A stretch of 64,000 nucleotides of DNA from the NCBI GenBank assembly GCA_037481835.1, contig JBBFKW010000007.1, positions 32,214-96,213 of the forward strand. Direction: 5' to 3'. Origin of the DNA: Desulfosoma sp. GTDB taxonomy: Bacteria; Desulfobacterota; Syntrophobacteria; Syntrophobacterales; DSM-9756. The notes beneath the pieces are model-generated. The model was given only the letters and a program-made list of their open reading frames with translations. It was not told where the DNA came from and searched no databases. A program made the translations under genes and the position numbers. Shown here in pieces: positions 1-16,639 of the stretch (position 1 is its first letter; every line of letters starts with the position of its first letter).

Positions 1-2739
1 GGTGTTCGCCCTGGATCCCGAGAAAGTGATCGAATCCGAACCTTGTGCCGGGCTTTGATTTCGTGCCGGATGGTCACGGTGGATATGGACGGCATCATGG
101 AGCGGGTTTCCGGCCGGCCGGGAATGGTGTCCAACCTTGTGGCCGTTTCCCCCATCTTGGACGCCTTGAGCGCAGCCGGCCTCCCCTTCGACTGGGCACA
201 GGACAAAGATGCGCTCGTCCAAGGCTTTCCCGATGCGGTTCTGAAAAATCCCAAGCTCCTCGGCCTCTATCGGGAAGCCATGGAAAGGGCTCGTCGCGAA
301 CGCCGCGAGTGGCCGTCCCCCGTTGCAGGAAATGGTGCCGGCAAAAGCGATTTCGGGGAAGCATCCGCGGGAGCCACACCGGCCTTTCCCGCTGGGCAAA
401 GCCGGGGGTGCGCGGAAGATCCCGGGGATGCGCTCATGATCATGGGTGGCACATTGGCGGGGATGGTTCTCTCCCAGATCGCCCTGCCGGAACACCCGCT
501 TTTTTACGTGGGATTCCCCATCACGCCCGCGGGCAATCCCTTCTATGCCATGGCGGAAGCTTTTGCCAACGGGCACCCTTATATCGTGGTCGATGAGCTG
601 AACCCGTCGGAAAAAGTGGCCGCGGAAAAGCTCTTGGGAGTGGCCCGAACGGGACTGTTTCTCCCCGTGACGTTTACGGCTTCCCAGGGCTGGCGGCTTT
701 TTACTGAAATCATCCCGCAGTTCGTCGGCGCTCGCTTGGAAGGTCTCTTTCTTTTGACAAAGAGGGCCCTTGCGGCGCCTAACCTCAACATCGAGGAAAG
801 CCATACCGATTTCATGACCTTTAGGGACGACGGCGGGATCATGCTGGCCCCCAAGAGCATTCAGGAATACGTCCCCTGTTTGTACCTGGCTCGGCTGCTC
901 ACTCACTTCGCCAAGCTCCCCGTCGTTCTTTCCATCGGCGGCATCACGGACACGCACAAGATCGGCCTGACCCGGGTGCCGCCCGACATCGTGGTGCGCC
1001 GCTGGCTTACGGAGACGCTGCAGGGATTCGATTTCTTGGAAGGGCGGATCGTCAATCCATCCGGCCACCGGGTGGTGCACGGTCCCAGCTGCACCGCCGC
1101 CACGTACCAGGAAACCCAAAGCGAAGTGGAAAAAGCCCACGCCATGGTGTGCCGGGTGTGGCCCTATGCGGTGGAAGCCGTGCGCCGGCTGACCGGGGTG
1201 GCTTTGAACCCGCTGGAAGTGCGGGTGGCCGGAACGGCCATGGAAGAAGCCGTCCCAGAGAGCGCTTCCTCCGTCGAAACTCTGCTCATGCTCCAAGGCT
1301 CTCTCTTCCCCAACGCCGTGGAAGCTTTGCAGGAATTGGAAGAAGAAGGCTGGCGGGCAATGGGCTGCGTGTCCGTGCGGCTCATGAACCCCTTCCCCGA
1401 AGAAGAGATCCAACATTGGATCGGCGGTCTCAGGGCTTTGGCGGTTTTGGATCGATCCAACAGTTTCGGGTCCGTCCCGCCGCTGGCTTCCCGCATTTTC
1501 AACGCGTGCGCCCGTCGCCGAAAGGATGGATCCAGAGCCGGGCCGATCGTTTTGAGAACTCTTGTGGGAGGTTTGGGCGGCCGGGAAATCACCGTGCCGG
1601 AAATGAAAGCTCTGATCCTTTCCACCCATCTTCTTTTCAGTCCATGGGAACCCTGGGAAGGTGAAGCCCTGGGACGATGGGTAGAGGAAGACGGCGCGCT
1701 TCGGGATTGGATCGAAGAATTGGCTGCTTTGGAGATGCGAGCTCTGGAACGGCATACACGGGTACCGAAGCCTGTCAAGGCCCAGGGGCCGGATGGAGAT
1801 CTGTTCTTCAAAGAGCGGATCCGCCGCCAGATTGTCCAACGGGACTATGTGGGCCTGCTCGCCCACTACAACCAGGTGGAATTCGTGGCGCCGAGAGAAG
1901 TTTACGGAGAGACGGCCCTGAGGCAGCAGCTGGTCATCGAGCTGGAAAAGCGCCTCGCTCGGCTGGCCGCCGAAAGCGGCCGCCGTGACTGGCGCCGTGC
2001 CTTGGTGCTCCTGCACTACGGGACTTCGGAGGAGGATCGCGAAAGAGCGCGAATCTTGCTTTCGGGATTGACCGAGGCCCCCTTTGCAGGGCGACTGCTG
2101 CGTCGCTACGGCCTGGACGGTGATGAGAGAGGAGGGCCCGTCGCGGCCCAAGCCCGCCCAATGGACCTTTCCTCGGGTGCGCCCGCCGTCCCGTGGACGT
2201 GCCTCCTTGAAGAGGAAGAAAGAAAGGCCGAAGCGCTTCCCGCCGTGGCCTACGAGGCGGAAGAAGCCGAGCGCATCGAAAGAGCGATTCGGAACCTTGT
2301 GGATCTTTCGAGCAGGCGGCCGCTGTTCCTCAACCCCGAAGACTACGATCGTCTCCTCCTGGAAGCCCTGGCTCACGAGGCGGATTCCCAGTGGGCCCGG
2401 ATCGTGACGGCCTCGGGGGAACCCTCGGCTTCCCAGCAGGAAGGATACCTGTGGACCTATCGGGATGTGATCGATCGATGCCTGCACCGCGAAGTTCTGG
2501 GGAAATTTTACGCTCCGGAAATTGAAGAGCTTTTCGACGGGCAGGGCCGGGATGGGCTTAGAAAACTTTTCGAAAGCCTCGAACCGTCCCTGGCCTTGGA
2601 AGAAAAGAAAAGGATCGTGGAAGAGCATTTGCGGCGCCGCATGTCCACTGAATGGACCAAGTCCCATGATTTTTATCTGGAAGTTTTCCGAACTTGGGTG
2701 TGGCCCGAAATCAGCGGACAGGGCGCAATGGGCACATAG
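1..2739 (+). CDS. 2-oxoacid:ferredoxin oxidoreductase subunit, gamma-like C-terminal part fused to PorA-type alpha domains, plus ~370-aa unknown C-terminal extension (5'-truncated by window edge)
   Basis: Frame is open from base 1. N-terminal VTVDMDGIMERVSGRPGMVSN resembles the end of a POR gamma domain. Alpha motifs present: GFPITP (YPITP-like), SEKVAA, TASQG, KRALAAPNLNI..SHTD, LDRSNSFG, GLGGREIT. Confidence 0.8.
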   Translation, partial: GVRPGSRESDRIRTLCRALISCRMVTVDMDGIMERVSGRPGMVSNLVAVSPILDALSAAGLPFDWAQDKDALVQGFPDAVLKNPKLLGLYREAMERARRERREWPSPVAGNGAGKSDFGEASAGATPAFPAGQSRGCAEDPGDALMIMGGTLAGMVLSQIALPEHPLFYVGFPITPAGNPFYAMAEAFANGHPYIVVDELNPSEKVAAEKLLGVARTGLFLPVTFTASQGWRLFTEIIPQFVGARLEGLFLLTKRALAAPNLNIEESHTDFMTFRDDGGIMLAPKSIQEYVPCLYLARLLTHFAKLPVVLSIGGITDTHKIGLTRVPPDIVVRRWLTETLQGFDFLEGRIVNPSGHRVVHGPSCTAATYQETQSEVEKAHAMVCRVWPYAVEAVRRLTGVALNPLEVRVAGTAMEEAVPESASSVETLLMLQGSLFPNAVEALQELEEEGWRAMGCVSVRLMNPFPEEEIQHWIGGLRALAVLDRSNSFGSVPPLASRIFNACARRRKDGSRAGPIVLRTLVGGLGGREITVPEMKALILSTHLLFSPWEPWEGEALGRWVEEDGALRDWIEELAALEMRALERHTRVPKPVKAQGPDGDLFFKERIRRQIVQRDYVGLLAHYNQVEFVAPREVYGETALRQQLVIELEKRLARLAAESGRRDWRRALVLLHYGTSEEDRERARILLSGLTEAPFAGRLLRRYGLDGDERGGPVAAQARPMDLSSGAPAVPWTCLLEEEERKAEALPAVAYEAEEAERIERAIRNLVDLSSRRPLFLNPEDYDRLLLEALAHEADSQWARIVTASGEPSASQQEGYLWTYRDVIDRCLHREVLGKFYAPEIEELFDGQGRDGLRKLFESLEPSLALEEKKRIVEEHLRRRMSTEWTKSHDFYLEVFRTWVWPEISGQGAMGT

Positions 2740-2753
2740 GACGGGGGGCGACC

Positions 2754-5700
2754 ATGGGCATGGAAGGACTCAGCTCGCAGTATTCCCTGGAACAATTCTA
2801 TGCGGAGCTTTCCACAGACCAGGAACGAGCCTTTCACAAGACGGCGCGAGACGTCACCGCGGCTTTGGCCGAACGCTTCCGGTTCCGGGATGCCGTTCGG
2901 GACGTGCACAACGCTGTGGAACAAGCTCTCGTCGCCCTGCGAAAAATCGACATGGCTTGGGACAGCGCCCCCGAAGGGGCGTGCCTGCGGGTTTTTCGCA
3001 GGAAATGGTTCGAGGCGGCGCCTCTTGTGGAACATGTCCGACGTGTGGGTTTTTTTTCAACACACCCCGTGGATCTTCTCCCCTGGGTCCGATGGTTCCT
3101 CCTTGTGGAAAACTACCATCGGACGGACCCTGTCCACCACGACCGCCGGTTGGACCGCCTGCGCTTCCTCAAGACCGAAAATCCCCACGCCCCGTGCATC
3201 AGCCACGAAGATGTGCTTCTGTGGCTCGAACACCAGCTTCTTGTCCACGAACGCGAGCCCTTGTCCGCGATCGCTGAAAAATGCGCCGAGCAGCTCCGAA
3301 ACCGGTTGGATGAAACCCTCAGGCCCCACACGGCCCTCGATGCTTTCTTTTTCGTCCTGTTGCGATGCCACCAGTTTTGTCTGGCTGAAACCATGACCGA
3401 AGACGATGCGAGGCGTCTTCAAACCGTCCTGGGATGGCGCCGGTTCCTCTCTCTGACGGATCTCATGCTCGTGGTCATCCATCGGGTCCTCGATCGGGAA
3501 CCTTTGCCGGACGCCGTGACGGTTCTCGATGAGCTGATGGCGGATGGGTTCCAGATTCGCCATGCGAGCTTCAAAGACCCGTACGAAGCGGATGTGGTGG
3601 CCGCGGAAGATACGGCCCGCTTCGATGAGACGACGATCCGGCTGTTCGCATCGGTGGATAAGCTTCACGGCATTTTGGAAAGAGATTGCGCGGCGGTCTT
3701 CCAAGAATGGCAGGCTCGGCGGGGAAAGGTTTTGGACGAGCTTGAGGAGGAGATTTGCGAGCTGAGGGAGATGATCGCCAACCCGCTGCCTCGAAAACAC
3801 CTCATCGGCCGAACCATTCGATTGCTAACGTCCTGGTGCTTGGCTCACGGGAAGCCGGGTGACGAGGCCTGGGAAAACATGTCGTCCGAAGAAGGCCTTA
3901 GAGCGCTCGTCGATCGGGTTCGGGCGTCTTTTCCCGAAGGGGTTCTCAAGGCTTTGGTGCGCCAGCGGCGCGGGTATGAATTGACCACTCGAAAAGAGCT
4001 GGCCCTTCGGATCGAAAGGGAATGCCGCCTGCAGTGGGAAAGTTTTCGAAAAGAGCCGGGTTCTCGAGCCTACGGGGAGGTTGATTTCCGGATTGCTGAG
4101 CGCGTTCGGGCCTTGGCTTCGGGGCCGGTCCCACCGGAAAAGGGTGATGCGGACGCACTCAAGGTCGAAACCCTTGCCGGCTTGGCCGACCTAATCCGGC
4201 GGCGCAAGATTTCCGATGAGGCGGTTTCGTCGTCGTTATGCTTGGGATTGGACGTGTTTTTCCCCACCATGGGAACGCCTTTGGAATTTGTGGAAAGCCT
4301 AAGAGACTTGGTACCTTACGAAGAATTGTGCAACCGCGCTCCGTCGGCGCAAAAGGGCGGACCGGAGGAGGCTGTGGCCTTGTACGAGAGAACCCTGGCC
4401 CGTTTTGCCGGGGCGTTCTACCGATTCGTTGTTGCCCAGGGCAAGAAGGAGGCCGGCCTGCCGCTTGAGCTTTCTTTAAGCGAAATTCCTGAACTGGCGG
4501 CGGTGATGGTCCCTCCGTGGGGTGCCCTGACCGAGGGGTTGCTGCGCAGTGCCGTCCGTAAATTTCAGCATCAATCGGCGCCTCTTTACCGCCGCCGGAA
4601 GAATCCCATCTGCTTGGATGAAGAAGAATTCGGCGTGCACCTGGCTCATTTCGTCATGTGCGAGCTCAAGGCCGATGTGAAGCACTCCGCCGAAACGGGG
4701 ACCCTGGCTGCGGTGCGAAAAGCCGTGACGGAGGAAGCTCTTCGGGTCGTCGTTCCGGACCGCGTCCGAACCCTCACGAGCCCGGAAAGATTCCTACTTC
4801 AATGGGCGGGGATCTTGGACTCCCGGCAGGGCGCCGAAGAGCTGCAGAGAGCCGTGGCGGGGGCTCTTCCCGGCTTGGACTGCGGTGCGTGTGGGGAAAG
4901 CCGATGCGCCTCCTTTGCCCAGGGACTCCTCCAAGGGCGGCGTCGCATCCGCGAGTGCGTACATCTCAGCCCCGCGGGGCAGCGGCACATCGAGGCCATG
5001 GTGCAGGAACATCTCTCCAAAGTCTCGCGAGGAAACGGTGTCGGATCGGCCTACGAACTTTTCCGGAATCCGGCCCTGTGGAGGCGTCTGCCGAAAGCGG
5101 ACCCATTGAGGCGTTCGGTAGTCAAGGTGGTAGATGTGGGCCGACAAGAGGAGCGGCGTCGGGTCATGGATCACGCTTTCCGGAGCTGGCAGGGGCTCGA
5201 TTCCAAGCCGGACGTTTACAAGAGGCCGGACCCGGAGGCTTTTTATCAAGCTCTTGTGGAAACCATCGGGTATGAGGCCACCGAAAGGATTCGCCCCGAG
5301 GAACGCCGGTGGTTGGCCGAGCACGGCCGAATCCGCCTGGAGAAGGAACTGGAAAAGCTGGAGAAGCGCACGGATTGGCTCACGCTGGAGCGGCTCCTCA
5401 TTTCCGGCGGGCCTTCGAGCCTTGAGGCGGATCCCGAAACCCAAGCCCTGCGCGCCTATGAGGCGATGGCCTACCTGCATCAGCTGCACGAGGACGACCG
5501 ACGGCGCCTTTTGGTCCATCGCCTGGAAAGCTTCGAAGAGGGGTTTTCCCAGTGGTGGAATCAAGATCTCCTCACCATGAACCACCCCCGCTACCGGATC
5601 GATAACTGGGAAGAATTTTCCAAGGTCATCAAGAACGCCTTTTGGCATCAGGAAAATTTCCCGCCGCCCCGGCGTGTGGCGGAAGAGCTCTTGGAGCACA

Positions 5701-7619
5701 TGGAGCAGAGCGGCGAAAAGGAAGTCTTTTTCCGGGATGTGCTGTCTTCATGGGTCCAGGACTTTCGGGGGGCGGGGGATCTTTTCCCGCAAGGGCGGAG
5801 GGACGAGGCGGGAACCGACCGCCGGGAAATCGAAAACTTGTCCGATCTGCGCCGGATTTTGGCTCGGTTGTGCCGGGATACGAGGCCTGCCGCCGAAAAG
5901 GCGGACTTTTCCGCATCGGTGCCGGGTTCAACCCGCCGTCGCATCGACGCCGTTTGGAAGGCCTTTCAAAAGTCGCCCGTGACTTTCGCGGCGACCTTTT
6001 CCCTGTCCGACGGGGATTTCACCGACCTGGAAAAACAGCATGTGAGGGATCGCCTCGGGGGGCAGCTCCCGGCGGATCTTTCCCTGGTGCCGTCCATGGC
6101 CGGAGGCCTTGAAGCTCTCGTGCTGGGATTGATCGGCGCCCTGCTGGAACAACAGGATCATCAAAGGCGGTTGGCTGCCCTGACGGAAGAAGCCGTGCGC
6201 TGCGAACAGGCCGAAAAGCTTCCGCAGGAAGCTGTGCGGGCGTGGATTTTCGAGGCCCTGGAGGCAGGCCATGAACCTCGGCAGATTCTGGAAAAAGTGC
6301 TGGGGTGGTTTCACCAGTTTCCCCTGTGGAAAGACCGGATCCTCGTGGATGCGCTCCAGAAGATGGTGAGCCTGACCCGCTGGCGAAACCTCCTGGAAAC
6401 TTTCCCGGGGGTGGTTCTGGAAGGGATTCCTGCGGAAGTCAGGGAAAGCTACGCGCGAACGTTTTCTCGATGGATGGAAAGGGTCGCAGAGGCCGTAGGG
6501 CGATTAGGGGATTTTGATCGAGAACGGCTGCTTTACTACCTATTTGTTCTGGCCAAGAGGGAAGGCGATTTGGACGTCATCACGGCCCTTTTGCGGGAAA
6601 TCCGGGAGACGTCGGATGTCATCGAGGCGGCGTGGCTGCAGTTCACCAACGATCGGCTGACGGAAGTTCTGCCCGCCCCTCCGACCAAGGGCCTGGAAGC
6701 TCGCTACAGCCTGCTGATCAACCGCCTCAAGGACCTGGAACCCGTGTGTCGAGGTCTGATGCAAGGCCTGTCTCGAAGCGAAAAACCTGATGTGGCGGCG
6801 GCGGTGCGCGAACTGCAGCTCTACATGCGATTTCACATGGTTCGCGATGAGGCCGAAGCCATGGATGCGGACGCCTGTTTCGAAACTTTTTGGGAGGAAG
6901 GCTACAACCTGGAAGGGTTGGACAAGGAAACGCTCCGTCAGGCTTTCCTGGCGGAATGGAAAAACCGGGAACGATGGCGAAAAGACCGGGTGTGGCTCAT
7001 GACCATGGCCGTCGCCCGAAGGCTTGCATCCCAGAGCCATGAGCTCTACGAGGCGGACAAGGCTTTTGCCAAAATGCGCCAGGGCCTTCTCAAGGAGGAT
7101 GGACCTGAAGAAGGCCGGGATGTGTGCCGGCGCCGGGGAATCGCCCTGGGCACGGTCAAGGAAGCCATGTACCGCGAGTTGTCCGAACTCTTGGAAAGGG
7201 AACGGATGGATTCCTTCAGGACGCGTATTCGCCAGATCGTGCATCAGTTGGACCGCAAAAGATTGCGGATCGTGCAGGCCTGGTTTTCGGGATCCATCGA
7301 CCGCTACAGCGTTTTCCACGTGCTCAGGCAGTATCAGAAGCGGGCTGAGCCGCCGAGCGACGACGATTTTCGAGAGTTTTTCATGGAACAGTGGTTTCGG
7401 CGTGTGGACCGGCTGCGGGAATCGGATCGCGCGGACCGCGACGATCGGATTCGAGAAGTGGATGAAGGATTTCACGCCCTCTTGGGGGTGTCTCCTCTGG
7501 CGCTGGAAAAAGAAGCGGCAAAGGAGGCAGCCGAGGCCTGGAAGTCCTGGATCCGAGAGACCGAAGAAGAGATCCGTCGTAGGCTGATTGCGGACGAGGT
7601 GCCTACGGCGCCCTTATGA
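2754..7619 (+). CDS. Very large (~1620 aa) hypothetical protein with internal RnfB/AcsC-type [4Fe-4S] motif
   Basis: Long ORF starting 14 nt after the previous stop, purine-rich RBS-like GGACGGGGGG before ATG 2754. Motif LPGLDCGACGESRCASFAQGLLQG-x6-CVHL at ~4866-4967. The rest is unrecognised and looks helical/charged. Confidence 0.75.
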   Translation: MGMEGLSSQYSLEQFYAELSTDQERAFHKTARDVTAALAERFRFRDAVRDVHNAVEQALVALRKIDMAWDSAPEGACLRVFRRKWFEAAPLVEHVRRVGFFSTHPVDLLPWVRWFLLVENYHRTDPVHHDRRLDRLRFLKTENPHAPCISHEDVLLWLEHQLLVHEREPLSAIAEKCAEQLRNRLDETLRPHTALDAFFFVLLRCHQFCLAETMTEDDARRLQTVLGWRRFLSLTDLMLVVIHRVLDREPLPDAVTVLDELMADGFQIRHASFKDPYEADVVAAEDTARFDETTIRLFASVDKLHGILERDCAAVFQEWQARRGKVLDELEEEICELREMIANPLPRKHLIGRTIRLLTSWCLAHGKPGDEAWENMSSEEGLRALVDRVRASFPEGVLKALVRQRRGYELTTRKELALRIERECRLQWESFRKEPGSRAYGEVDFRIAERVRALASGPVPPEKGDADALKVETLAGLADLIRRRKISDEAVSSSLCLGLDVFFPTMGTPLEFVESLRDLVPYEELCNRAPSAQKGGPEEAVALYERTLARFAGAFYRFVVAQGKKEAGLPLELSLSEIPELAAVMVPPWGALTEGLLRSAVRKFQHQSAPLYRRRKNPICLDEEEFGVHLAHFVMCELKADVKHSAETGTLAAVRKAVTEEALRVVVPDRVRTLTSPERFLLQWAGILDSRQGAEELQRAVAGALPGLDCGACGESRCASFAQGLLQGRRRIRECVHLSPAGQRHIEAMVQEHLSKVSRGNGVGSAYELFRNPALWRRLPKADPLRRSVVKVVDVGRQEERRRVMDHAFRSWQGLDSKPDVYKRPDPEAFYQALVETIGYEATERIRPEERRWLAEHGRIRLEKELEKLEKRTDWLTLERLLISGGPSSLEADPETQALRAYEAMAYLHQLHEDDRRRLLVHRLESFEEGFSQWWNQDLLTMNHPRYRIDNWEEFSKVIKNAFWHQENFPPPRRVAEELLEHMEQSGEKEVFFRDVLSSWVQDFRGAGDLFPQGRRDEAGTDRREIENLSDLRRILARLCRDTRPAAEKADFSASVPGSTRRRIDAVWKAFQKSPVTFAATFSLSDGDFTDLEKQHVRDRLGGQLPADLSLVPSMAGGLEALVLGLIGALLEQQDHQRRLAALTEEAVRCEQAEKLPQEAVRAWIFEALEAGHEPRQILEKVLGWFHQFPLWKDRILVDALQKMVSLTRWRNLLETFPGVVLEGIPAEVRESYARTFSRWMERVAEAVGRLGDFDRERLLYYLFVLAKREGDLDVITALLREIRETSDVIEAAWLQFTNDRLTEVLPAPPTKGLEARYSLLINRLKDLEPVCRGLMQGLSRSEKPDVAAAVRELQLYMRFHMVRDEAEAMDADACFETFWEEGYNLEGLDKETLRQAFLAEWKNRERWRKDRVWLMTMAVARRLASQSHELYEADKAFAKMRQGLLKEDGPEEGRDVCRRRGIALGTVKEAMYRELSELLERERMDSFRTRIRQIVHQLDRKRLRIVQAWFSGSIDRYSVFHVLRQYQKRAEPPSDDDFREFFMEQWFRRVDRLRESDRADRDDRIREVDEGFHALLGVSPLALEKEAAKEAAEAWKSWIRETEEEIRRRLIADEVPTAPL

Positions 7620-7728
7620 AAAAGGCCGCACCCTTATTTTCCGCCCTTTTCGACCTCGGCGGGTCGTCACGGCGTGATGAACGCCGCGGCCGGCCACGGA
7701 AAAGAAGAATATTCAAGGAGTCGTCGCC

Positions 7729-10700
7729 ATGAGCGCCTATCAACCTTTGGACCCGAACATGACATGTCGTCCCTCGTGGTGGGTGGAACGTCTTCGGTGC
7801 GTTTCGGGCCGCCCAGTTCCAGTTCGGGACACGCGCATCCCGAAAGACGGGAAACCTCTGGCGGCGGTCGTCGGTGCCCTTCGGGCAGGATTGGACGAGC
7901 TGCGGTTGCTTGTAGGGGCGGATTCGGAGGCTTTCCGGGGTTTTGTCGAAGGGCTGCGCGCCGAGGCCTTGGGACCGTGGGGAGAGGATCCTGAGCGCCG
8001 TTTGGTCGGGCTGGTTAAAGAGGCTTTGGGGCGAAGGGATTGGCGCGAAAAAGACATCATCGACATGATTCTCGCCTATCTCACGGCGCTGGGTCCTTCG
8101 CTGCCCGAAGATGTGAGAATGTCTTGGGAAAGGTTGGAAAGGGCGGCGAAGGCGCGCAACGGTGCCGAGCGCACGCTCATGGAAGGCCTCATCAGCGAAG
8201 CGCGGGGGCGTCTTGGCGGCTTGGCGTGGGCCCGGGAGCATGCCTTGGAAAAAGGACCCCGTGAGGGCGCCTTCGGCCTTTCTTCCCTTCGATGGCTTCG
8301 AGAAACACTGGCCGCCATGACGGGATGCGCCGGCGATCTCGCCGACCGTTCCGATGAGGAGTTGGCGCGCCTGAGTCCGGCCGAGATATGGCAGGATTTG
8401 GACGAGGCTTTGACGAAAGCCTGGGGGAAAACGGGCCGGAGCTTTCCCGTCAAAGATTTGGAAAAAGCTTCCTTGTATCTCATGGAGGACATGGGAGCGA
8501 GGAGTCCCAACCATCGGTTCTTCATCCGTTTTCTCATTGAAGACGAAGCGGCCTATCGGCGCCTCTTGAGAACCTGTTACGCCGACGAAACGGTGCAGAG
8601 GGCCTGTTTGGATCAGGAATGCGAGCGGTTCAACCGTCTTCCGGAACATGCGGCCCACCGGGTGTTCTACGACGCCGACGAAAAAACGTGGTGGCTTAAA
8701 GCGTTTTTCCTCAGGCCGGACGTGGTGCACTGTTTCGTGGAACGGGAAAGAGCCAAGGATATTTACCATGTCCTCGCGGGACTGGAACCTAAAGCCTATC
8801 TGCCTCGGGTGCTCCATGAAGTTCAAGGGCTTTTCGGGTATGTGACACCGGAGGCGTGCCGCCACATCGTCCAGCGCCTCGGCTTGGATCCCGAAGACGT
8901 TCTTCGGGTGATCGCCTCCTACAAGCAGTACAGCGCCGATCCCTCGGGGGACATCATCATCTACGTGTGCAAGGGAACAGCGTGTTTTCTCCGCGGCCAG
9001 CCTGAACTGTCGCGTCGGCTCACTGAGGAAATCGGGGCGGAAGTGGACGCCGTGGGCCGCTACGGGGTGCAGTATGTGGAGATGGATTGTTTCGGGGTGT
9101 GCCATCTGGCTCCCGTGGTGCGCGCCGGAAATCGTTTCTATGGAAAGCAAAAGGCGGAAGATATTCCCCGGCTGGTGAATAGCCTCATCCAGGGCCCCGA
9201 CTACGAAAACCGGCAACGGTTCGTGTCGCGCCTTTTGGAAAAGATGCGTGCCGACAGCGTCAGCGAGCCCGTGGATGCTTTGAGGGTCGAATCCGTGGGA
9301 AAATTTTCCAAAGTCGACCGCTTGGGAGTGCGGGAAGAGGGCGCGTGGGACGATTCTTTGGAGGGATGTTCGGTAATTTTGGACGACAAGGGCGCTGTTT
9401 CCATACTCCTACCGGACGGTTTCGCGCACGGCGTAGGCCGACTGGTCCCTCGGGTTCTTCCTTTCATCATGCGGGATGCGGACGGTTTCAATCGTTTCGG
9501 CGCCGTCGTTCTCGATGATCATCGTCGGGCGGCACGGGTGTTGGGCGTGCCCGACCTGACGGACGAGGAGGTGATCCGGGGCGCGCTTCGTCCGACGGCT
9601 CGAGTCGTGGACGGCCGCGTGGTGCTCTCTTCCCATGAAAAGACCGTGGTGCTGGGCCCTTATACGGATCGGGTGCTCATCGCCGACGCCCCTGATGCCT
9701 ACGTCGCCGTTGTTTTGGCGGAAGGAGGTGCTTCAGGTCCTTTCGTCGAAACCGAAGCAAGAGGCCCTGACAGGGTTGCGTCCGAAGAGGCCTCTTTCCG
9801 GGCGGGCCAAGACCGGGTTGTTTTGGATTTCGCCGCTGCAGGGCGTCCGTCCTGCATGGCGTCCTATCGAGCGGCGGGGGGCTATGAGTCGGTCTACCGG
9901 GTGCTGGGATTTCGCGGGGAGCCCCCGTGGGATCCGGAACGGATCATCGCGGAAGTGCGGGACGCGAAGCTTCGGGGACGGGGCGGGGCGGGCTTTCCCA
10001 CGGGACGCAAGTGGGAAGCCATGTTACGGGCCGTGTGTCGGATCGATCCCGAAGACGGCAACCAAGACCCGGTGAAACTCATCGTGGCCAACGGCGACGA
10101 AGGAGACCCGGGGGCCTTCATGGACCGCACGCTCATCGAGGAAAAACCCCATCAGGTTCTGGAAGGAATGATCTTGGCCGCCGTTGCCGTGGGCGCCCGC
10201 TACGGGGTGATCTATGTGCGAAAAGAGTATGAAGACGCCGTGAGAAGCCTGGAGGACGCGCTTTTCGAGGCACGGCGCTGCGGGTTTCTCGGGCGGGATA
10301 TTTTTGGAGTGTCCGGATTGCACTTTGACGTGGAAATCCGATTGGGGGCCGGGGCGTTCGTGGCCGGAGAGAAGCGGGCCATCATGCGGGCCATTGAAGG
10401 AAAGCCTGCAGAACCCACCATCAAGGCCCCGTCCAACACCGTGCGCGGGCTTTGGGGAAAGCCCACACTGCTCAACAACGTGGAAACCTTTGCCAATGTC
10501 CCCGTCATTCTTCACCGAGGGAGCGCCTGGTATGCCCGGCTGGGCACGTCCCGAAGCGGCGGGACCAAAATCTTTTCCGTCGCCGGCATTGTCAAGAAAA
10601 CCGGGCTCGTGGAAGTCCGCTTCGGCAAGACCCTTGGGGATGTCATCGAAATCTGCGGCGGAATCCAGGACGGAAAGAAACTCTCCGGAGTCCAGATCGG

Positions 10701-11394
10701 GGGGCCGTCCGGAGCCATCCTGTCCTTGACCGGCGCTCGGGCTTACCTGCTCCAGACGCCTTTGGATTTCGACACGTTCAACGATGCCGGCGCCATGTTG
10801 GGTTCCGGCGGGTTGGTCTTTATCGGAGAAGACGACGACGTCGTCCGGCTGGCTCGCCATTTTACGGATTGGCTTTCGGAAGAATCCTGCGGTCAATGCC
10901 CGTCGTGTTTTCGAGGCACCCGGGCCTTGGGGCGTGTCCTGGACAAGATCCTGGCCGGTCAGGGCACAGCGGGCGATATTCACGAATTGTGGGCTTTGAG
11001 CGATGTGGTGCGGGCCGGAAGTCAGTGCGGCCTAGGAACAACCGCCGCCAACCCCGTGACCAGCGCCTTGCGGTTTTTCCCCGCGTCCTTTTTCCACTAC
11101 CTGCTCGGCAACCCGGAGATGCAACCTCGCGATGTCTTTGAGGCCCTGGAGGCCCTGAGGCTCCTGACACGACAGGAAATCGTTCGTGTTGCGGGAGTGC
11201 GCCGACACGTGGAAGGGGCGGCTTTCACGCTGAAACGGCATCTGGTGCGGTTCCTGGTGGAAGAAATCGAAAAAATCGATCGCTACCGGCCGTTGCCTTC
11301 CCGAATGACCGATCGGTTGCTCCGGTTGCTGGGCCTGCCGCGCTACGAAGTGGGCCAAAGAGAAGTCGTCATGGAATGGCGCGATGTGGCATAA
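7729..11394 (+). CDS. Fusion of unknown N-terminal domain + NuoE/HydC-like [2Fe-2S] domain + NuoF/HydB-like FMN/NAD(P)H-binding domain
   Basis: AAGGAG RBS. LHEVQGLFGYV, CKGTAC...CFGVC (NuoE-type 2Fe-2S). LRGRGGAGFPTGRKW, NGDEGDPGAFMDR, NNVETFANV, GGPSG, ESCGQCPSC...CGLG (NuoF FMN and N3-type cluster motifs). Confidence 0.88.
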   Translation: MSAYQPLDPNMTCRPSWWVERLRCVSGRPVPVRDTRIPKDGKPLAAVVGALRAGLDELRLLVGADSEAFRGFVEGLRAEALGPWGEDPERRLVGLVKEALGRRDWREKDIIDMILAYLTALGPSLPEDVRMSWERLERAAKARNGAERTLMEGLISEARGRLGGLAWAREHALEKGPREGAFGLSSLRWLRETLAAMTGCAGDLADRSDEELARLSPAEIWQDLDEALTKAWGKTGRSFPVKDLEKASLYLMEDMGARSPNHRFFIRFLIEDEAAYRRLLRTCYADETVQRACLDQECERFNRLPEHAAHRVFYDADEKTWWLKAFFLRPDVVHCFVERERAKDIYHVLAGLEPKAYLPRVLHEVQGLFGYVTPEACRHIVQRLGLDPEDVLRVIASYKQYSADPSGDIIIYVCKGTACFLRGQPELSRRLTEEIGAEVDAVGRYGVQYVEMDCFGVCHLAPVVRAGNRFYGKQKAEDIPRLVNSLIQGPDYENRQRFVSRLLEKMRADSVSEPVDALRVESVGKFSKVDRLGVREEGAWDDSLEGCSVILDDKGAVSILLPDGFAHGVGRLVPRVLPFIMRDADGFNRFGAVVLDDHRRAARVLGVPDLTDEEVIRGALRPTARVVDGRVVLSSHEKTVVLGPYTDRVLIADAPDAYVAVVLAEGGASGPFVETEARGPDRVASEEASFRAGQDRVVLDFAAAGRPSCMASYRAAGGYESVYRVLGFRGEPPWDPERIIAEVRDAKLRGRGGAGFPTGRKWEAMLRAVCRIDPEDGNQDPVKLIVANGDEGDPGAFMDRTLIEEKPHQVLEGMILAAVAVGARYGVIYVRKEYEDAVRSLEDALFEARRCGFLGRDIFGVSGLHFDVEIRLGAGAFVAGEKRAIMRAIEGKPAEPTIKAPSNTVRGLWGKPTLLNNVETFANVPVILHRGSAWYARLGTSRSGGTKIFSVAGIVKKTGLVEVRFGKTLGDVIEICGGIQDGKKLSGVQIGGPSGAILSLTGARAYLLQTPLDFDTFNDAGAMLGSGGLVFIGEDDDVVRLARHFTDWLSEESCGQCPSCFRGTRALGRVLDKILAGQGTAGDIHELWALSDVVRAGSQCGLGTTAANPVTSALRFFPASFFHYLLGNPEMQPRDVFEALEALRLLTRQEIVRVAGVRRHVEGAAFTLKRHLVRFLVEEIEKIDRYRPLPSRMTDRLLRLLGLPRYEVGQREVVMEWRDVA

Positions 11395-11452
11395 AGGCAA
11401 AAGTGAAGAGGGAAATCCAGCTGTCAGGAAAACGTTGCCCTGGAGGGGGACC

Positions 11453-12022
11453 ATGATGACCAAAGAGAGAACGTACTTCCAAGCCTTTCGAGAAATGGTG
11501 CAGGTGGTGAGCGGCACCTTGGATGTGCAGGTGGTGCTGCAGGCCATGGTGAGCACGATTCCCCAGGTCTTGGGGGCCAAGGCCTGTGCCGTCCGCCTCC
11601 TGGACCCCAAAGGCCGCACTCTGGAATTGGCCGCCAGTCACGGACTCAGTGACGCCTACATCCACAAGGGGCCTGTCGATGCGGACCAAAGCCTTGCCGA
11701 AACGCTTCAAGGAAAGACCGTCGTCATCCACGATGCATCGACGGACCCTCGAGCCCAGTACGGCGAAGCGGCCCGCAAGGAGGGGATCGTGGGCATCTGT
11801 TCCGTTCCCCTTAAGGTCAAAGGGAGGGTGATCGGGGTCCTGAGAATTTACACCGAGGAGCCCAAGGAGTATGTCCCCGACGAGCTGGCCTTTGTGGAGG
11901 CTTTGGGAGAATTGGGAGGCATTGCCATTGAAAACGCCCGTATGTACGAGCGGCTGAAAAAGGATTACGAAGAGGTCATGAGCGATGTCTTTCGCTTTGT
12001 GGGGTATCGGCGCAGCCTGTGA
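11453..12022 (+). CDS. Stand-alone GAF domain protein
   Basis: GGAGGGGG RBS before ATG 11453. LELAASHGLS, SVPLKVKGRVIGVLRIY, IAIENARMY are typical GAF signatures. Confidence 0.85.
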   Translation: MMTKERTYFQAFREMVQVVSGTLDVQVVLQAMVSTIPQVLGAKACAVRLLDPKGRTLELAASHGLSDAYIHKGPVDADQSLAETLQGKTVVIHDASTDPRAQYGEAARKEGIVGICSVPLKVKGRVIGVLRIYTEEPKEYVPDELAFVEALGELGGIAIENARMYERLKKDYEEVMSDVFRFVGYRRSL

Positions 12023-12102
12023 TCCGGACTGCACGGGGGGGAGCGGCTGGGGAAATCCTACGAAAACGGTCGTGTAAGATATCAGGAAAGTTAAGAAATT
12101 TT

Positions 12103-12129
12103 TAAAGTTTCCCGCCGATTCGCCGATAG
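12103..12129 (+). promoter_or_regulatory. Sigma-28 (FliA)-type promoter
   Basis: TAAAGTTT (12103-12110) - 11 nt - GCCGATAG (12122-12129) versus consensus TAAAGTTT-N11-GCCGATAA. Confidence 0.8.
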
Positions 12130-12207
12130 TTTTTTTAGATGGCGGCGAACGCCCGCTCAAGGGGAGAGCGTGCGGGCTTGAATCCGGTCAGAGTGAGGGC
12201 GGCGGAA

Positions 12208-13263
12208 ATGGCGGTCGGGGCGGTTGCAGCGGTTGCGGAGAAGGACTACGGCGCTCTGGATTTTCGAAAAGCGAAGAAACAGTCCCTGGACGGGCCGGTC
12301 AAAATCGAAGATCTGGGCTACGTGCCTTTTCCGGTGAAATTTTTGGTTCCGGATTTCATGATCCCGTGCGATCTCTTTGTTCCCGTGCTGGCCAAAGGGG
12401 AAGAGCTTCCCACCTTCGTCAAGGTCTTGGACCGAGGGCAGTTTTTTTCCGAGGAGTGGAGGTTCGCGCTCAAGGAACAGCGTGTGGACATGCTCTATGC
12501 GGAAGAAGACGCCGCGATGGGCCTCGACGACTATTTCGCCGAAGTCCTCCATGCCTTCACCGAAGACGAGGTGACCCCCACGTGGCAAAAGGCCCTGGTT
12601 TTGTACAATTACGGGGAATTTCTCGCCCGGCGCCTCTTTCAGGATGTGCATGACGGGGATCTCTTCGAAAAAACGATCCATTGGGCAGACTCCGTCGTTG
12701 GGCTCGTCCAGGGGCAGCAGGCGAAGGTTTCCGTGATCTATCGGCTGTTTTCCCGAGATTACGAAACTTTCAACCACAGTGTCCAGGTGGCGATGCTGGC
12801 CGCGGCTTTTTGCGGCTTTTGCGGCTGGCGCTCCGAGGACGCGACTCGTGTCGGTGTCGCCGGGCTTTACCACGATATCGGAAAAATCTGGGTAGACCAG
12901 AGGATCCTTCTCAAGCCCTCATCCCTCACCCGTGAAGAATTCGGCCAGATCCGTCGGCATCCGCAGGCCGCTTACGACCATTTGGCGGCCTTAGACTGGA
13001 TGAACGCCGATCAGTTATCCGCCGTTCGCGAACATCACGAATCCATGGACGGCACGGGCTATCCTCAGGGGCTCAAAGGAGCGGACATCCATCCATACGC
13101 TCGGGTTTTGCACATCTGTGATTGTTTTGACGCCTTGACCACCCACCGGCCCTACAAAAAAGCCGTCACCCCTTACAAGGCCTTGAAGCTCATGCAAAGT
13201 GAGATGAGGCTTTCTTTCGATCGACACCTCCTGTATAAATTCATTCAATTTCTCGGTTCTTGA
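12208..13263 (+). CDS. HD-GYP domain protein (putative c-di-GMP phosphodiesterase)
   Basis: [39 protein letters not shown]. Start uncertain: ATG 12139 lies almost at the predicted transcription start, so ATG 12208 is preferred. Confidence 0.9.
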
Positions 13264-13321
13264 GCCGTACCGGCCGAGAAAGCCGAAAAATTCGAAACTG
13301 GAGACAGTATTGAGGTGCGCG

Positions 13322-14923
13322 ATGCCTGAAAGACAGGTCTATCTTTACGACACCACTTTGCGTGACGGGACGCAGGCCGAGGACTTCAACCTTTCCTTGG
13401 CCGATAAGATCCGGGTGGCTCTGAAATTGGATGATCTTGGGATTCATTACATCGAAGGGGGATGGCCGGGATCCAATCCCAAGGACGAGGAATTTTTTGC
13501 GGAGATCCGAAATTACGAACTGAAACGGGCCAAGATCGCCGCCTTCGGATCCACGCATCACCCGAGTAATCGGGCCGATCAGGACGCCAATCTGCGCGCC
13601 TTGGTGGACGCCAAGACTCCCGTGGTTACCATTTTCGGCAAGAGTTGGACGGTGCACGTCAAGGATGCCTTGAAAACCACGTTGAACAAGAACCTGGAAA
13701 TCATCCGAGACAGCTTGGCTTTCCTCCGGCCGCAGGTGGAGACGCTCTTCTATGATGCCGAACACTTTTTCGACGGTTTCCGGGACAATCCTGAATACGC
13801 TCTGGCCACCTTGGCCAAAGCCGTGGAAGGCGGGGCGGAATGCCTCATTTTGTGTGACACCAACGGCGGGAATCTGCCGTCGACCATTCAGGAAGCCATC
13901 AAAGCCGTGCAGGCCCGTTTTCCCAACGTTCCCTTAGGGATTCACGCCCATAACGATTCGGACTTGGCTGTGGCCAATTCACTGGCGGCGGTGGAAATGG
14001 GCGTCGTCCAGGTTCAAGGGACCTTCAACGGTGTGGGGGAGCGCTGCGGTAACGCAAACCTGTGTTCCATCATCCCCACGCTGTGCCTGAAGATGAACAT
14101 CCCGTGTTTGGCTCCGGAAGATCTGAAAAAACTCAGGCGAGTCAGCCGATTCATCCTGGAAATTGCCAATGTGCCGCCCAACCGTTACCAACCTTACGTG
14201 GGCCGAAGCGCCTTCGCCCACAAAGGCGGGGTCCATATCAGCGCCGTGGAACGCAGCCCCCGCACCTACGAACACATTGATCCGGAACTGGTGGGCAACA
14301 AGCGCCGATTTCTCATCTCCGACCTGTCTGGCAGGGCGGCTGTTCAGAGAAAAGCCGTGGAATTCGGCATCCCCCTTACTTCCAAGGACCCTGTGGCCTT
14401 GCAGGTGCTCAATCAAATCAAGGAACTGGAACATCAAGGCTATCAGTTTGAAGCCGCCGAGGCCAGCTTTGAACTGCTCATCAACAAGGCCATGGGCCGG
14501 TTCAAGAAATACTTCGAACTCATCGGATACCGCGTGGTGGACCAAAAGCTCAGCGAAAACGGGGAGCCGGTGTCGGAAGCCACCATCCGCGTCCGCGTCG
14601 GGGGGCAGGAAGAGCATACGGCGGCCCTGGGGCAGGGGCCGGTGAACGCCCTGGACAACGCGCTGCGCAAGGCTCTGGAAAAGTTCTATCCCGAACTCAA
14701 AGGCATGGAGCTCACGGACTACAGGGTTCGCGTTCTTCCCGGCAAGGAAGGGACGGCGGCCAAGGTGCGCGTGCTCATCGAATCCCACGACGGCAAGGAA
14801 CACTGGGGGACCGTGGGCGTTTCCCACGACATCTTGGAAGCCAGCTGGCAGGCCCTCGTGGACAGCATCAACTACAAAATGTACATGGGGGAAAAGGCCC
14901 AAGAAACCAAGACGGCCAAATAA
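13322..14923 (+). CDS. cimA: Citramalate synthase (LeuA/CimA family)
   Basis: [55 protein letters not shown]-terminal allosteric domain (GPVNALD...WGTVGVS). Confidence 0.9.
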
Positions 14924-15265: not shown

Positions 15266-16639
15266 CTAGTTGTTGAGGCTTTGGACGGGTGCGGGGATGC
15301 GGCCGCCGAGCCGAATGAATTCCGTGGAGAGATCCCCATTGGGTATGGGAATGATGGTCGCCTCTCCCAGTAGGCCCCCGAAGTAGGCTTTTTCTCCCGC
15401 TTTTTTTCCGGGGACTGGGATGAGCCGGGCTGCGGTGGTTTTTCGGTTGATAACACCGATGGCCATTTCGTCAGCGATGATGGCGGCGAGGGTTTCGGCG
15501 GACGTATCGCCCGGCAGAGCCACCATATCGAGCCCGACGGAGCAGACGCTGGTCATGGCTTCGAGCTTTTCCAGGCTGAGATGCCCCTTTCGGGCCGCCT
15601 CGGAAATGTTCAGATCTTCGCTCACGGGGATGAACGCGCCGCTCAAGCCGCCCACATAGCTGCTGGCAAAGGCGCCGCCTTTCTTGACTGCATCGTTGAG
15701 CAAGGCCAAGACCGCCGTCGATCCCGGGGCGCCGATGCTTCCCAGGCCCAGGCTCTGGAAGATTTCCCCCACACTATCCCCCACGTTGGGTGTGGGCGCC
15801 AGGCTGAGGTCCACGACACCGAAGGGGATTTCGAGGCGGCGGGCCACTTCCCGGCCGATGAGTTCCCCGACGCTCGTGACTTTGAAGGCCGTCCGTTTGA
15901 TGACTTCGGCCAGCCGGCCCAAATCCAGCGCGGGATTGGTCCGTCGCGCCCGATCGATGGCTTTTCGCACCACTCCGGGACCGCTCACCCCCACGTTGAT
16001 GACGCATTCCGGTTCGCCGACACCCAGGTAGGCTCCCGCCATAAACGGAATATCTTGGGGAATGTTTGCAAAGACGCACAGCTTGGCGCACCCGATGCCG
16101 TCCGCGTGGGCGGTAGCCGAGGCGGTGCGTTTGATGACATGGCCCATCATGAGAACGGCATCCATGTTAATGCCCGCCTTGGTGGCGGCCACGTTGACCG
16201 AAGCACAGACCCGCTCGGTTTGAGCAAGGGCTTCCGGAATGGCGTCGATGAGGCTCACATCTCCGTTGGTGAACCCTTTTTCCACCAAGGCGCTGAAGCC
16301 GCCGATGAAGTCCACGTGAACCTCTTGGGCGGCCTCGTCCAGCGTTCGGGCGACCTTGATGAGATCGTCCCGAGCGAAAGCGGCGCCCACCACGGCGATG
16401 GGGCTGACGGCAACGCGTTTGTTCACCACCGGGATGCCGTACTTGTCTCCCACGTCATCGCACACGGCAACGAGATTTTGGGCAAGGCGGACGATTTTTC
16501 GTCGCACCTTGTCGCAGAACCTGTCCACGTCCGGGTCGGCGCAGTCGAAAAGACTCACGCCTAGGGTGACCGTGCGGACATCCAGATGTTCGCTGCGAAG
16601 CATTTCCAGAGTGGAGAGAATTTCCCGATCCGAGAGCAT
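15266..16639 (-). CDS. PFL-like / UPF0210 (DUF711) family protein
   Basis: LDVRTVTLGVSL, GIPVVNKRVAVSPI, KLEAMTSVCSVGLDM; paired with an ACT gene as is typical for the family. Confidence 0.9.
   Translation of the reverse strand: MLSDREILSTLEMLRSEHLDVRTVTLGVSLFDCADPDVDRFCDKVRRKIVRLAQNLVAVCDDVGDKYGIPVVNKRVAVSPIAVVGAAFARDDLIKVARTLDEAAQEVHVDFIGGFSALVEKGFTNGDVSLIDAIPEALAQTERVCASVNVAATKAGINMDAVLMMGHVIKRTASATAHADGIGCAKLCVFANIPQDIPFMAGAYLGVGEPECVINVGVSGPGVVRKAIDRARRTNPALDLGRLAEVIKRTAFKVTSVGELIGREVARRLEIPFGVVDLSLAPTPNVGDSVGEIFQSLGLGSIGAPGSTAVLALLNDAVKKGGAFASSYVGGLSGAFIPVSEDLNISEAARKGHLSLEKLEAMTSVCSVGLDMVALPGDTSAETLAAIIADEMAIGVINRKTTAARLIPVPGKKAGEKAYFGGLLGEATIIPIPNGDLSTEFIRLGGRIPAPVQSLNN

Follow-up and report, generated by a model that had tools for sequence, protein, structure and literature searches.

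A giant helical protein with one Fe-S domain, encoded between a 2-oxoacid oxidoreductase and a NuoE-NuoF flavoprotein in Desulfosoma and its relatives

Anaerobes normally pass the electrons of 2-oxoacids to free ferredoxin. There are examples in which a 2-oxoacid:ferredoxin oxidoreductase (OFOR) is wired to a flavoprotein of its own and works without free ferredoxin, such as the pyruvate:NADP+ oxidoreductase of Euglena and Cryptosporidium and the phenylglyoxylate oxidoreductase PadEFGHI. Here we describe a gene set in a stretch of 64,000 nucleotides (nt) of Desulfosoma sp. DNA (contig JBBFKW010000007.1, positions 32,214 to 96,213; "the window" below), in which gene A encodes a predicted OFOR, gene C a NuoE-NuoF fusion and gene B, between them, a protein of 1,621 amino acids (aa) that is almost all-helical in models and has one embedded Fe-S domain. 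In concept A-B-C resembles pyruvate:NADP+ oxidoreductase and the NAD+-dependent PadEFGHI, but those enzymes use other flavoprotein modules (P450-reductase-like or other) and are not known to have a giant helical linker. What sets A-B-C apart is the rearranged single-chain OFOR, the NuoE-NuoF fusion and, above all, a 1,621-aa linker without detected relatives.

Two further groups of known proteins are relevant. In other NuoEF-containing enzymes, a NuoG- or HydA-type subunit connects the cluster at the N3 position to the catalytic module. RnfB and the large subunit of the corrinoid iron-sulfur protein (CFeSP; AcsC/CdhE) contain the small helical domain PF04060 with CX2CX4CX16C ligands, the same as in protein B, and clusters of this type in RnfB and CFeSP transfer electrons.

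The predicted "Por-Bfu" enzymes are also close. In the portion of Schut et al. 2022 (PMC9304861) on which we draw, they consist of BfuABC plus four Por subunits, with clusters of their genes reported from syntrophic Proteobacteria as well; BfuABC is defined there by a BfuB with ferredoxin-type 4Fe-4S domains, that is, extra clusters, plus a BfuA subunit. Compared with this description, A-B-C likewise encodes an OFOR together with a NuoE/NuoF-type NAD(H) module. It differs in that C lacks the extra clusters, in that there is no BfuA-like gene, in that the OFOR is one rearranged chain of 2,162 aa, and in that the 1,621-aa B, which has no matched fold, is inserted between OFOR and flavin module.

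We propose that protein B is the scaffold and the single-cluster relay of a soluble A-B-C complex of about 5,000 residues which would carry electrons from a 2-oxoacid to NAD(P)+. In our judgement this proposal is evenly poised between right and wrong.

Protein B and its Fe-S domain

Gene B lies at 2754..7619 on the plus strand, in an open frame that spans 2694-7619 (+). A G-rich stretch that resembles a Shine-Dalgarno sequence precedes its ATG at 2754, from which the protein has 1,621 aa, in agreement with the length of about 1,620 aa given in the preliminary description of this DNA. The database copy of the protein starts two residues downstream, at the next Met, and has 1,619 aa. The highest mean hydrophobicity of B in a 19-residue window (Kyte-Doolittle) is 1.75, at residue 1109, comparable to the maxima of its soluble-enzyme neighbours (A 1.75, C 1.68). 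Judged by this scale, without a dedicated predictor of transmembrane segments or signal peptides, B indeed has no obvious transmembrane helix, as had been noticed earlier.

The Fe-S domain, of the PF04060 RnfB/CFeSP type, occupies residues 694-757 (4833..5024, +). The motif LPGLDCGACGESRCASFA...C covers residues 705-735 and has its Cys at 710, 713, 718 and 735 (codons 4881-4883, 4890-4892, 4905-4907 and 4956-4958). Pfam matches PF04060 ("FeS") to residues 705-736 with an E of 3e-10 and 40.1 bits, the cut-off being 23, and the same family is matched by 21/21 members of our alignment of B sequences. All four Cys are invariant in this alignment, which reaches down to 30% identity. Every one of the 36 family proteins that cover the site has the pattern CxxCx4Cx16-17C, with x17 in the 7,473-aa fusion protein P0049; the 17 proteins without it are 16 fragments that do not cover the site and the protein P0046, which begins after it. 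The four Cys therefore passed the check on their conservation in homologues that the preliminary description had called for.

When the whole alignment of B was used as a profile against the PDB, it matched only CFeSP large subunits and RnfB, in both cases through the Fe-S domain (4djd_C, CFeSP, E 2e-7; 7zc6_B, RnfB, E 9e-5). Foldseek places the modelled domain on CFeSP 4djd_C over 51 columns with a root mean square deviation (rmsd) of 1.4 A and a probability of 1.00. A VIA search places model residues 692-752 on RnfB 9eri_B (59 residues, rmsd 2.0 A) with a Z of 6.6, which is below 8 and weak taken alone. Pfam, PDB profile search and fold matches agree, and the assignment of the motif to the RnfB/AcsC type can be kept. 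Going by these matches, the domain is a clear member of PF04060 and is predicted to bind a [4Fe-4S] cluster.

We considered whether B could be an RnfB or a CFeSP subunit and rejected both, because neither the family scores nor the accompanying domains are there. B reaches 17 bits with the RnfB model TIGR01944 (cut-off 68.7) and 26.1 bits with the CFeSP large-subunit model NF003195 (cut-off 306); its NCBIfam matches to CdhE/AcsC, MobB/FeS proteins and RnfB are short (40-60 residues) and far sub-threshold, and only residues 7-57 of 4djd_C align with it. In B the domain sits in the middle of 1,621 aa and not near the N-terminus, and there is no membrane anchor. Neither the ferredoxin domains that follow in RnfB nor the TIM-barrel and corrinoid domains of CFeSP are present. 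Pfam finds no Fer4 domain in B, nor any 2Fe-2S or other ferredoxin-type domain, and there are no rnf genes among the neighbours examined.

AlphaFold2 (AF2) models of the two halves of B, built from 16-row alignments taken from the loci, are both almost entirely helical. The model of residues 1-800 has a mean predicted local distance difference test score (pLDDT) of 81.4 and that of residues 690-1621 one of 80.4, each with a predicted template modelling score (pTM) of 0.68. On both sides of the Fe-S domain pLDDT falls below 50 (686-693 and 757-764 in the first model, 758-763 in the second), and a hot-spot after residue 762 has insertions of up to 40 residues in relatives. We read these low-confidence brackets and the site of variable length as signs that the domain is tethered; its linkers look flexible in the models.

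Conservation spans the whole length of B in the 21-sequence alignment, in which R123, R132, R135, H270, D275 and W934-W935-N936 are among the invariant residues. By conservation and the AF2 models three regions stand out. The N-terminal helical region, residues 30-460 (2841..4133, +), is rich in invariant Arg, Glu, His and Trp; C209 is invariant and H206 nearly so. Its modelled block has a pLDDT mostly of 84-97 up to about residue 340, and no fold match was found for it in the half-protein searches. The helical block at residues 811-990 (5184..5723, +), with the motif WWNxDLL...DWE(D/E)FSKVIKNA(F/Y)WHQE, also occurs in the fusion proteins P0046 and P0049. The best-conserved region is residues 1255-1600 (6516..7553, +), which is modelled as helices with a pLDDT mostly of 87-94; here REIRETSD at 1281-1288 is invariant and column conservation over residues 1261-1290 is 0.88. 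Two blocks had been picked out as conserved-looking from the single sequence, FSQWWNQDLLTMNHP (residues 931-945) and LLREIRETSDVIEAAWLQFT (residues 1279-1298), and both fall inside the best-conserved stretches of the protein.

Outside the Fe-S domain the flanks of B have no Pfam or NCBIfam match even at E up to 1, and in all 21 aligned homologues there is likewise no Pfam match. Lenient Pfam scans covered these flanks and the unmatched parts of A and C; sub-threshold matches to HEPN_RES_NTD1 (4/21 members, E at least 0.017), Peptidase_M8 and PAH were set aside as noise. BLASTP comparisons of B with A, with C and with itself showed no similarity and no internal repeats, and profile-profile comparison gave probabilities of 2.1% with the N-terminus of C, 0.3% with the C-terminus of A and 0.1% with the middle of C. 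With Foldseek neither half finds anything in the PDB at E <= 1e-3 except the Fe-S domain. A wide VIA search returned best Z values of 6.6 and 6.5 for the halves, all to the Fe-S domain or to short helical fragments; according to the notes of the tool, Z <= 6.5 is background for helical proteins. The ESM Atlas gave no usable match for whole B and has no model of it. The fold searches used models of 800 and 932 residues, a size at which a known fold in a single sub-domain could escape them. The flanks of B are a new protein family, with no relatives detected outside the A-B-C system by sequence or by half-protein fold search. That such a family might be present had already been suggested, and the empty searches of Pfam, NCBIfam, PDB sequences and, with the half-protein models, PDB folds bear this out.

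Genes A and C, gene order and natural fusions

Only the C-terminal 912 codons of gene A, recognized by its open frame and Pfam domains, lie in the window (1..2739, +), and a gap of 14 nt separates them from gene B. The preliminary description was right to place an OFOR before B. The complete protein is much larger than its part in the window, with 2,162 aa and a start that lies 3,750 nt upstream (L028:2251-8739). It comprises a Fer4 match at 191-257 (a two-cluster ferredoxin domain), a stretch at 535-783 that matches 9bt4_C, the beta subunit of a PFOR (E 4.5e-7), a stretch at about 1113-1291 with weak similarity to POR gamma (E 0.0013), and POR_N (1418-1631) and PFOR_II (1676-1784), which together make alpha domains I and II (1418-1784). 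From its domain content A is predicted to be a complete but rearranged single-chain OFOR. Twelve Cys are invariant in 13 sequences, enough for three [4Fe-4S] clusters. As for the class of substrate, the nearest NCBIfam models are those of pyruvate and general 2-oxoacid enzymes, and the Pad name (phenylglyoxylate oxidoreductase) occurs among the matches; all nearest models score far below their cut-offs.

The region around A is GC-rich (about 0.60), and long antisense frames lie opposite the gene, one of 1,635 aa (L028:3760-8667, -) and one of 889 aa (window 1-2667, -). We take these frames as spurious.

The same genome contains at least five conventional multi-subunit OFOR loci (on contigs C5, C7 at 111134-115576, C18, C11, C4 and C14) and no NifJ-type single-chain PFOR above the TIGR02176 cut-off. 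A-B-C thus adds to these OFORs and is not the only one of the genome.

Gene C (7729..11394, +) encodes 1,221 aa and is a NuoE-NuoF fusion by its Pfam, NCBIfam and PDB matches. A NuoE-like [2Fe-2S] domain at 357-485 is followed by a NuoF-like FMN/NADH/[4Fe-4S] module at about 700-1121, and C also has a system-specific N-terminal part of 356 aa and a middle stretch (487-735); about 600 of its residues are unmatched. The best PDB match is HydB 7p5h_B (E 2e-116), of which only residues 137-558 of 626 are aligned, and the NuoF part is nearer to HydB of bifurcating hydrogenases (393 bits) than to NuoF of complex I (288 bits). Only 8 Cys are invariant in 14 sequences, those of the NuoE and N3 ligands. 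No ferredoxin-type (Fer4) Pfam domain was found in C, and no NuoG/HydA/BfuA-like gene was seen in the A-B-C gene cluster.

Judging by gene order and fusions, a complete OFOR (delta, beta, a weak gamma and alpha in A) and an NAD(P)H/FMN module (NuoE and NuoF in C) are encoded as one unit. On sequence grounds A-B-C looks like an OFOR wired to an NAD(P)-binding flavoprotein and is predicted to be of the 2-oxoacid:NAD(P)+ oxidoreductase type. We also tried to read it as a BfuABC bifurcating enzyme. This was rejected, since C has no Fer4 domain and 8 invariant Cys and there is no BfuA, which departs from the definition in the portion of PMC9304861 used here; by that same definition the sequence of C resembles non-bifurcating NuoEF homologues rather than BfuB. 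Because C lacks the extra clusters of the Bfu type, the simplest reaction to propose would be a non-bifurcating 2-oxoacid:NAD(P)+ oxidoreduction.

The order of the three genes is strict. A is upstream of B in 20/20 loci that reach upstream, and C is downstream of B in 22/22 loci that reach past B, two loci (L017 and L018) looking like duplicates of one population. A scan of 2400-13400 for promoters and terminators gave counts at the shuffle expectation and no terminator-like excess.

Natural fusions join the same genes. At locus L020 a single open frame runs through both B and C with no stop in between, and P0034 (2,980 aa) is also a B-C fusion. The two are only 58% identical over 2,396 aligned columns, and so the fusion exists in two species and is not a slip of assembly. 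P0046 (2,242 aa) starts with a Met at about B residue 780 and consists of the C-terminal half of B followed by C; it has no PF04060 domain. In P0049 (7,473 aa) A, B and C follow one another on one chain: after an unmatched head of 1,090 residues come A (1094-3335), B (profile matches 3843-4402 and 4487-5092, Cys motif at 4353) and C (5392-6812), and then an unmatched tail of about 660 residues. No homologues were found for the last 661 residues.

Of all the evidence that A, B and C work as one unit, these fusions carry the most weight, and they also hint at an association of the C-terminal half of B with C. The probable association of B with A and C rests on the fusions and on the gene order, and both bear out the earlier placement of B between an OFOR and a flavin module. 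Like the domain content and the conservation of the Cys, they are supported by computation only.

Distribution of the family and the genes downstream

Among 5.8 billion clusters, a word-indexed search picked out 22 near-length homologue clusters of B, with 31-100% identity, all with PF04060. The names of homologues among these clusters are only "(Fe-S)-binding protein" or "Putative Fe-S cluster", and they come from Desulfosoma and Desulfacinum. An exhaustive search with a profile of residues 800-1621, which excludes the Fe-S domain, found only 33 proteins at E <= 1e-3 among 1.84 billion representatives. With these 22 clusters and 33 representatives, "orphan", the word first used for the protein, is too strong, though B belongs to a very small family.

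In an even sample of the phylum, the C-terminal half of B is present in 6/401 genomes: its own genome, all three others of its family, one of four in a sister family and one of twelve in a distant family. A profile of the N-terminal half finds the same six genomes, and 10 further genomes match the Fe-S domain only. In this sample the two halves of B occur only with the A-B-C system.

A scan of species-representative genomes gave 25 B loci. Their taxa are Desulfacinum, Desulfosoma, Desulforhabdus, Desulfoferrobacter, Syntrophobacteraceae and metagenome-assembled genomes (MAGs) of Syntrophobacterales; Desulfobacca and "Desulfobacterales" MAGs have more remote loci. Four carriers are in culture, Desulfacinum infernum, Desulfacinum hydrothermale, Desulfosoma caldarium and Desulfoferrobacter suflitae. 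B diverges faster than its neighbours, with about 29-43% identity in most loci against about 50-60% for A and 50-62% for C.

Some copies of B are irregular. In a Desulfosoma MAG (L003) and in P0006/P0007, B is about 105 residues shorter than in other Desulfosoma (1,483-1,487 against 1,592 aa) and the tblastn match is broken in two, which points to a deletion within the C-terminal variable region or to a fault of assembly there. In two long-read MAGs (L019 and L026) the matches of A and B are in 2-5 pieces with short frames, for example 623 aa in L026. These breaks look like frameshift errors or decay, and both loci were excluded from the alignments.

We found no paper on protein B or on the A-B-C gene cluster. 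Among the sequencing runs listed as containing gene B none is an RNA run, and the DNA runs are hot-spring and sediment metagenomes.

Downstream of C, and recognized by its open frame, Pfam and NCBIfam, a gene for a stand-alone GAF-domain protein of 212 aa (11384..12022, +) shares its first 11 nt with the end of C. In NCBIfam the protein most resembles the GAF domains at the N-termini of PtsP and NifA (E about 5e-9, with scores far short of the cut-offs), and a homologue follows C in 13/16 loci that extend far enough. The GAF protein may be a fourth, regulatory component that senses a small molecule. No conserved neighbours across genera beyond A, B, C and this gene appeared among 65 flank open reading frames of 10 loci. 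The GAF gene is followed by one for a HD-GYP-type phosphodiesterase of 374 aa (12139-13263, +; HD_5 at 204-364), present only in the closest relatives, the Desulfacinum and Desulfosoma loci, and then by a citramalate synthase gene (13310-14923). A DUF711 protein of 457 aa (E 6e-188) is encoded at 15266-16639 on the minus strand; in the Desulfacinum locus L002 an ACT-domain protein adjoins the DUF711 homologue.

Possible roles of protein B

If B is the scaffold and relay proposed above, the parts could fit together as follows. A would supply thiamine pyrophosphate (TPP), one proximal [4Fe-4S] cluster and the two-cluster ferredoxin domain. C would supply a NuoE/NuoF-type NAD(P)H:FMN module with one [4Fe-4S] cluster in the N3 position and one [2Fe-2S] cluster. 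B would supply a very large all-helical scaffold with no recognisable catalytic domain, its N-terminal half associating with A and its C-terminal half with C, and one low-potential [4Fe-4S] cluster on the RnfB/CFeSP-type domain at the junction of the halves. The cluster of B would bridge the ferredoxin domain of A and the N3 cluster of C, so that electrons might run from the 2-oxoacid through TPP, the three clusters of A, the B cluster, N3 and FMN to NAD(P)+.

The suggestion of a cluster relay between A and C comes from the inventory of cofactors. With 12 invariant Cys in A, 8 in C and no NuoG/HydA subunit, there is a gap that the one cluster of B could fill. B would then fill the position held by NuoG/HydA-type subunits in other NuoEF-containing enzymes. 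The role presumably shared with NuoG, HydA and "BfuA" is to move electrons between an N3-type cluster of a NuoF module and a catalytic subunit; B has no sequence or fold relationship to these proteins and has one cluster, not several. That a complex forms, that the cluster is bound, that electrons move in this order, that the Fe-S domain is mobile and that the substrate is a 2-oxoacid, all this we infer.

Several points weigh against B being a scaffold and relay. There is no direct sign of A-B-C binding or of electron transfer. One complex prediction, of B 1250-1621 with C 1-356, gave values of 0.01 and 0.00 for the interface score ipSAE where the mark is 0.32; made from 13-row alignments and without controls, it counts neither way. 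No RNA or protein sign of B expression turned up. About 1,560 conserved residues far exceed the needs of one relay cluster, and B may have a further role. If A docked its ferredoxin domain straight onto the N3 face of C, as it could, the main path would not need the cluster of B. P0046, in which the C-terminal half of B is joined to C, carries no PF04060 domain. The half-protein models, at 800 and 932 residues, could have led the searches to overlook a known single-domain fold. Finally, PF04060 is also a regulatory or sensor domain in sigma-54 activators, as the portion of PMC6615313 used here describes.

What else could B do? One suggestion, unlikely in our view, is that its helical domains have a function of their own: they might receive a third partner (ferredoxin, a CoA or acyl carrier, or a further substrate), or form with the FMN of C a new site at which electrons are split or joined. 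The complex would then exceed a simple 2-oxoacid:NAD(P)+ reaction. The size of B and its conservation over all 1,621 residues, among which invariant Arg, Glu, His and Trp form clusters, go unexplained by a one-cluster relay, and this keeps the suggestion alive; the C-terminal 350 residues are the best conserved of all. The bit scores that bring the NuoF part of C nearer to HydB (393) than to complex I (288) point the same way, and with at least five conventional OFOR loci in the genome A-B-C presumably does something different. On the other hand, the searches with B turned up no family or fold that stands for catalysis or ligand binding, and the invariant charged residues could equally be interface residues. 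C also lacks the extra clusters that the Bfu literature, in the portion of PMC9304861 used here, holds necessary for bifurcation.

It is also possible, though we think it unlikely, that B is structural or regulatory. Its cluster would be a sensor of redox state, O2 or NO, and electrons would pass from the ferredoxin domain of A straight to N3 of C. Whether this cluster is oxidised or reduced, intact or damaged, would turn the complex on or off, and the downstream GAF protein might take part. The position of PF04060 among the sensory N-terminal domains of sigma-54 activators (in the same portion of PMC6615313) is consistent with this. So are the translational coupling of the GAF gene to C and its presence in 13/16 loci, the HD-GYP protein that comes next in the closest relatives, and the tethering of the Fe-S domain by low-confidence linkers. 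Against this, in RnfB and CFeSP, the best-matching solved contexts, the cluster transfers electrons, and in the single-chain fusion B sits between A and C. Moreover C has no NuoG-like partner of any kind, so that some bridging centre is to be expected.

A bolder extension is that A-B-C is a new class of giant soluble redox machine, in which the tethered Fe-S domain would swing between OFOR and NuoEF and gate or split electrons. We consider this quite unlikely. If it were true, each protomer would have about 5,000 residues, over half of them helical sequence without detected relatives, the scaffold would hold a new fold or folds, and 2-oxoacid oxidation or synthesis could be coupled to NAD(H) and a second partner through a mechanism that has no relation to the bifurcating sites of Bfu, Etf, Nfn and Hdr.

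That B has no functional link to its neighbours, or is a chance frame in GC-rich DNA or a decaying gene, is next to impossible in our view. Long spurious antisense frames do occur here, such as the one of 1,635 aa opposite gene A, but homologues of B as distant as about 23-30% identity are still full-length, keep invariant motifs and are not systematically broken; moreover its AF2 models are confident, its gene order is strict and fusions exist.

Whatever its exact role is, protein B has about 1,560 conserved non-cofactor residues without a relative in the sequence and half-protein fold searches and is therefore a good target for structure determination; its structure would hold lessons on how very large scaffolds organise electron transfer. 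Since cultured carriers exist, the question that A-B-C raises is directly testable. If B is the scaffold and relay of an A-B-C complex, a self-contained route from 2-oxoacids to NAD(P)+, with a linker protein of its own, would solve the problem in another way than by free ferredoxin, and it would bear on how the ferredoxin and NADH pools are balanced in sulfate-reducing and syntrophic Syntrophobacterales.

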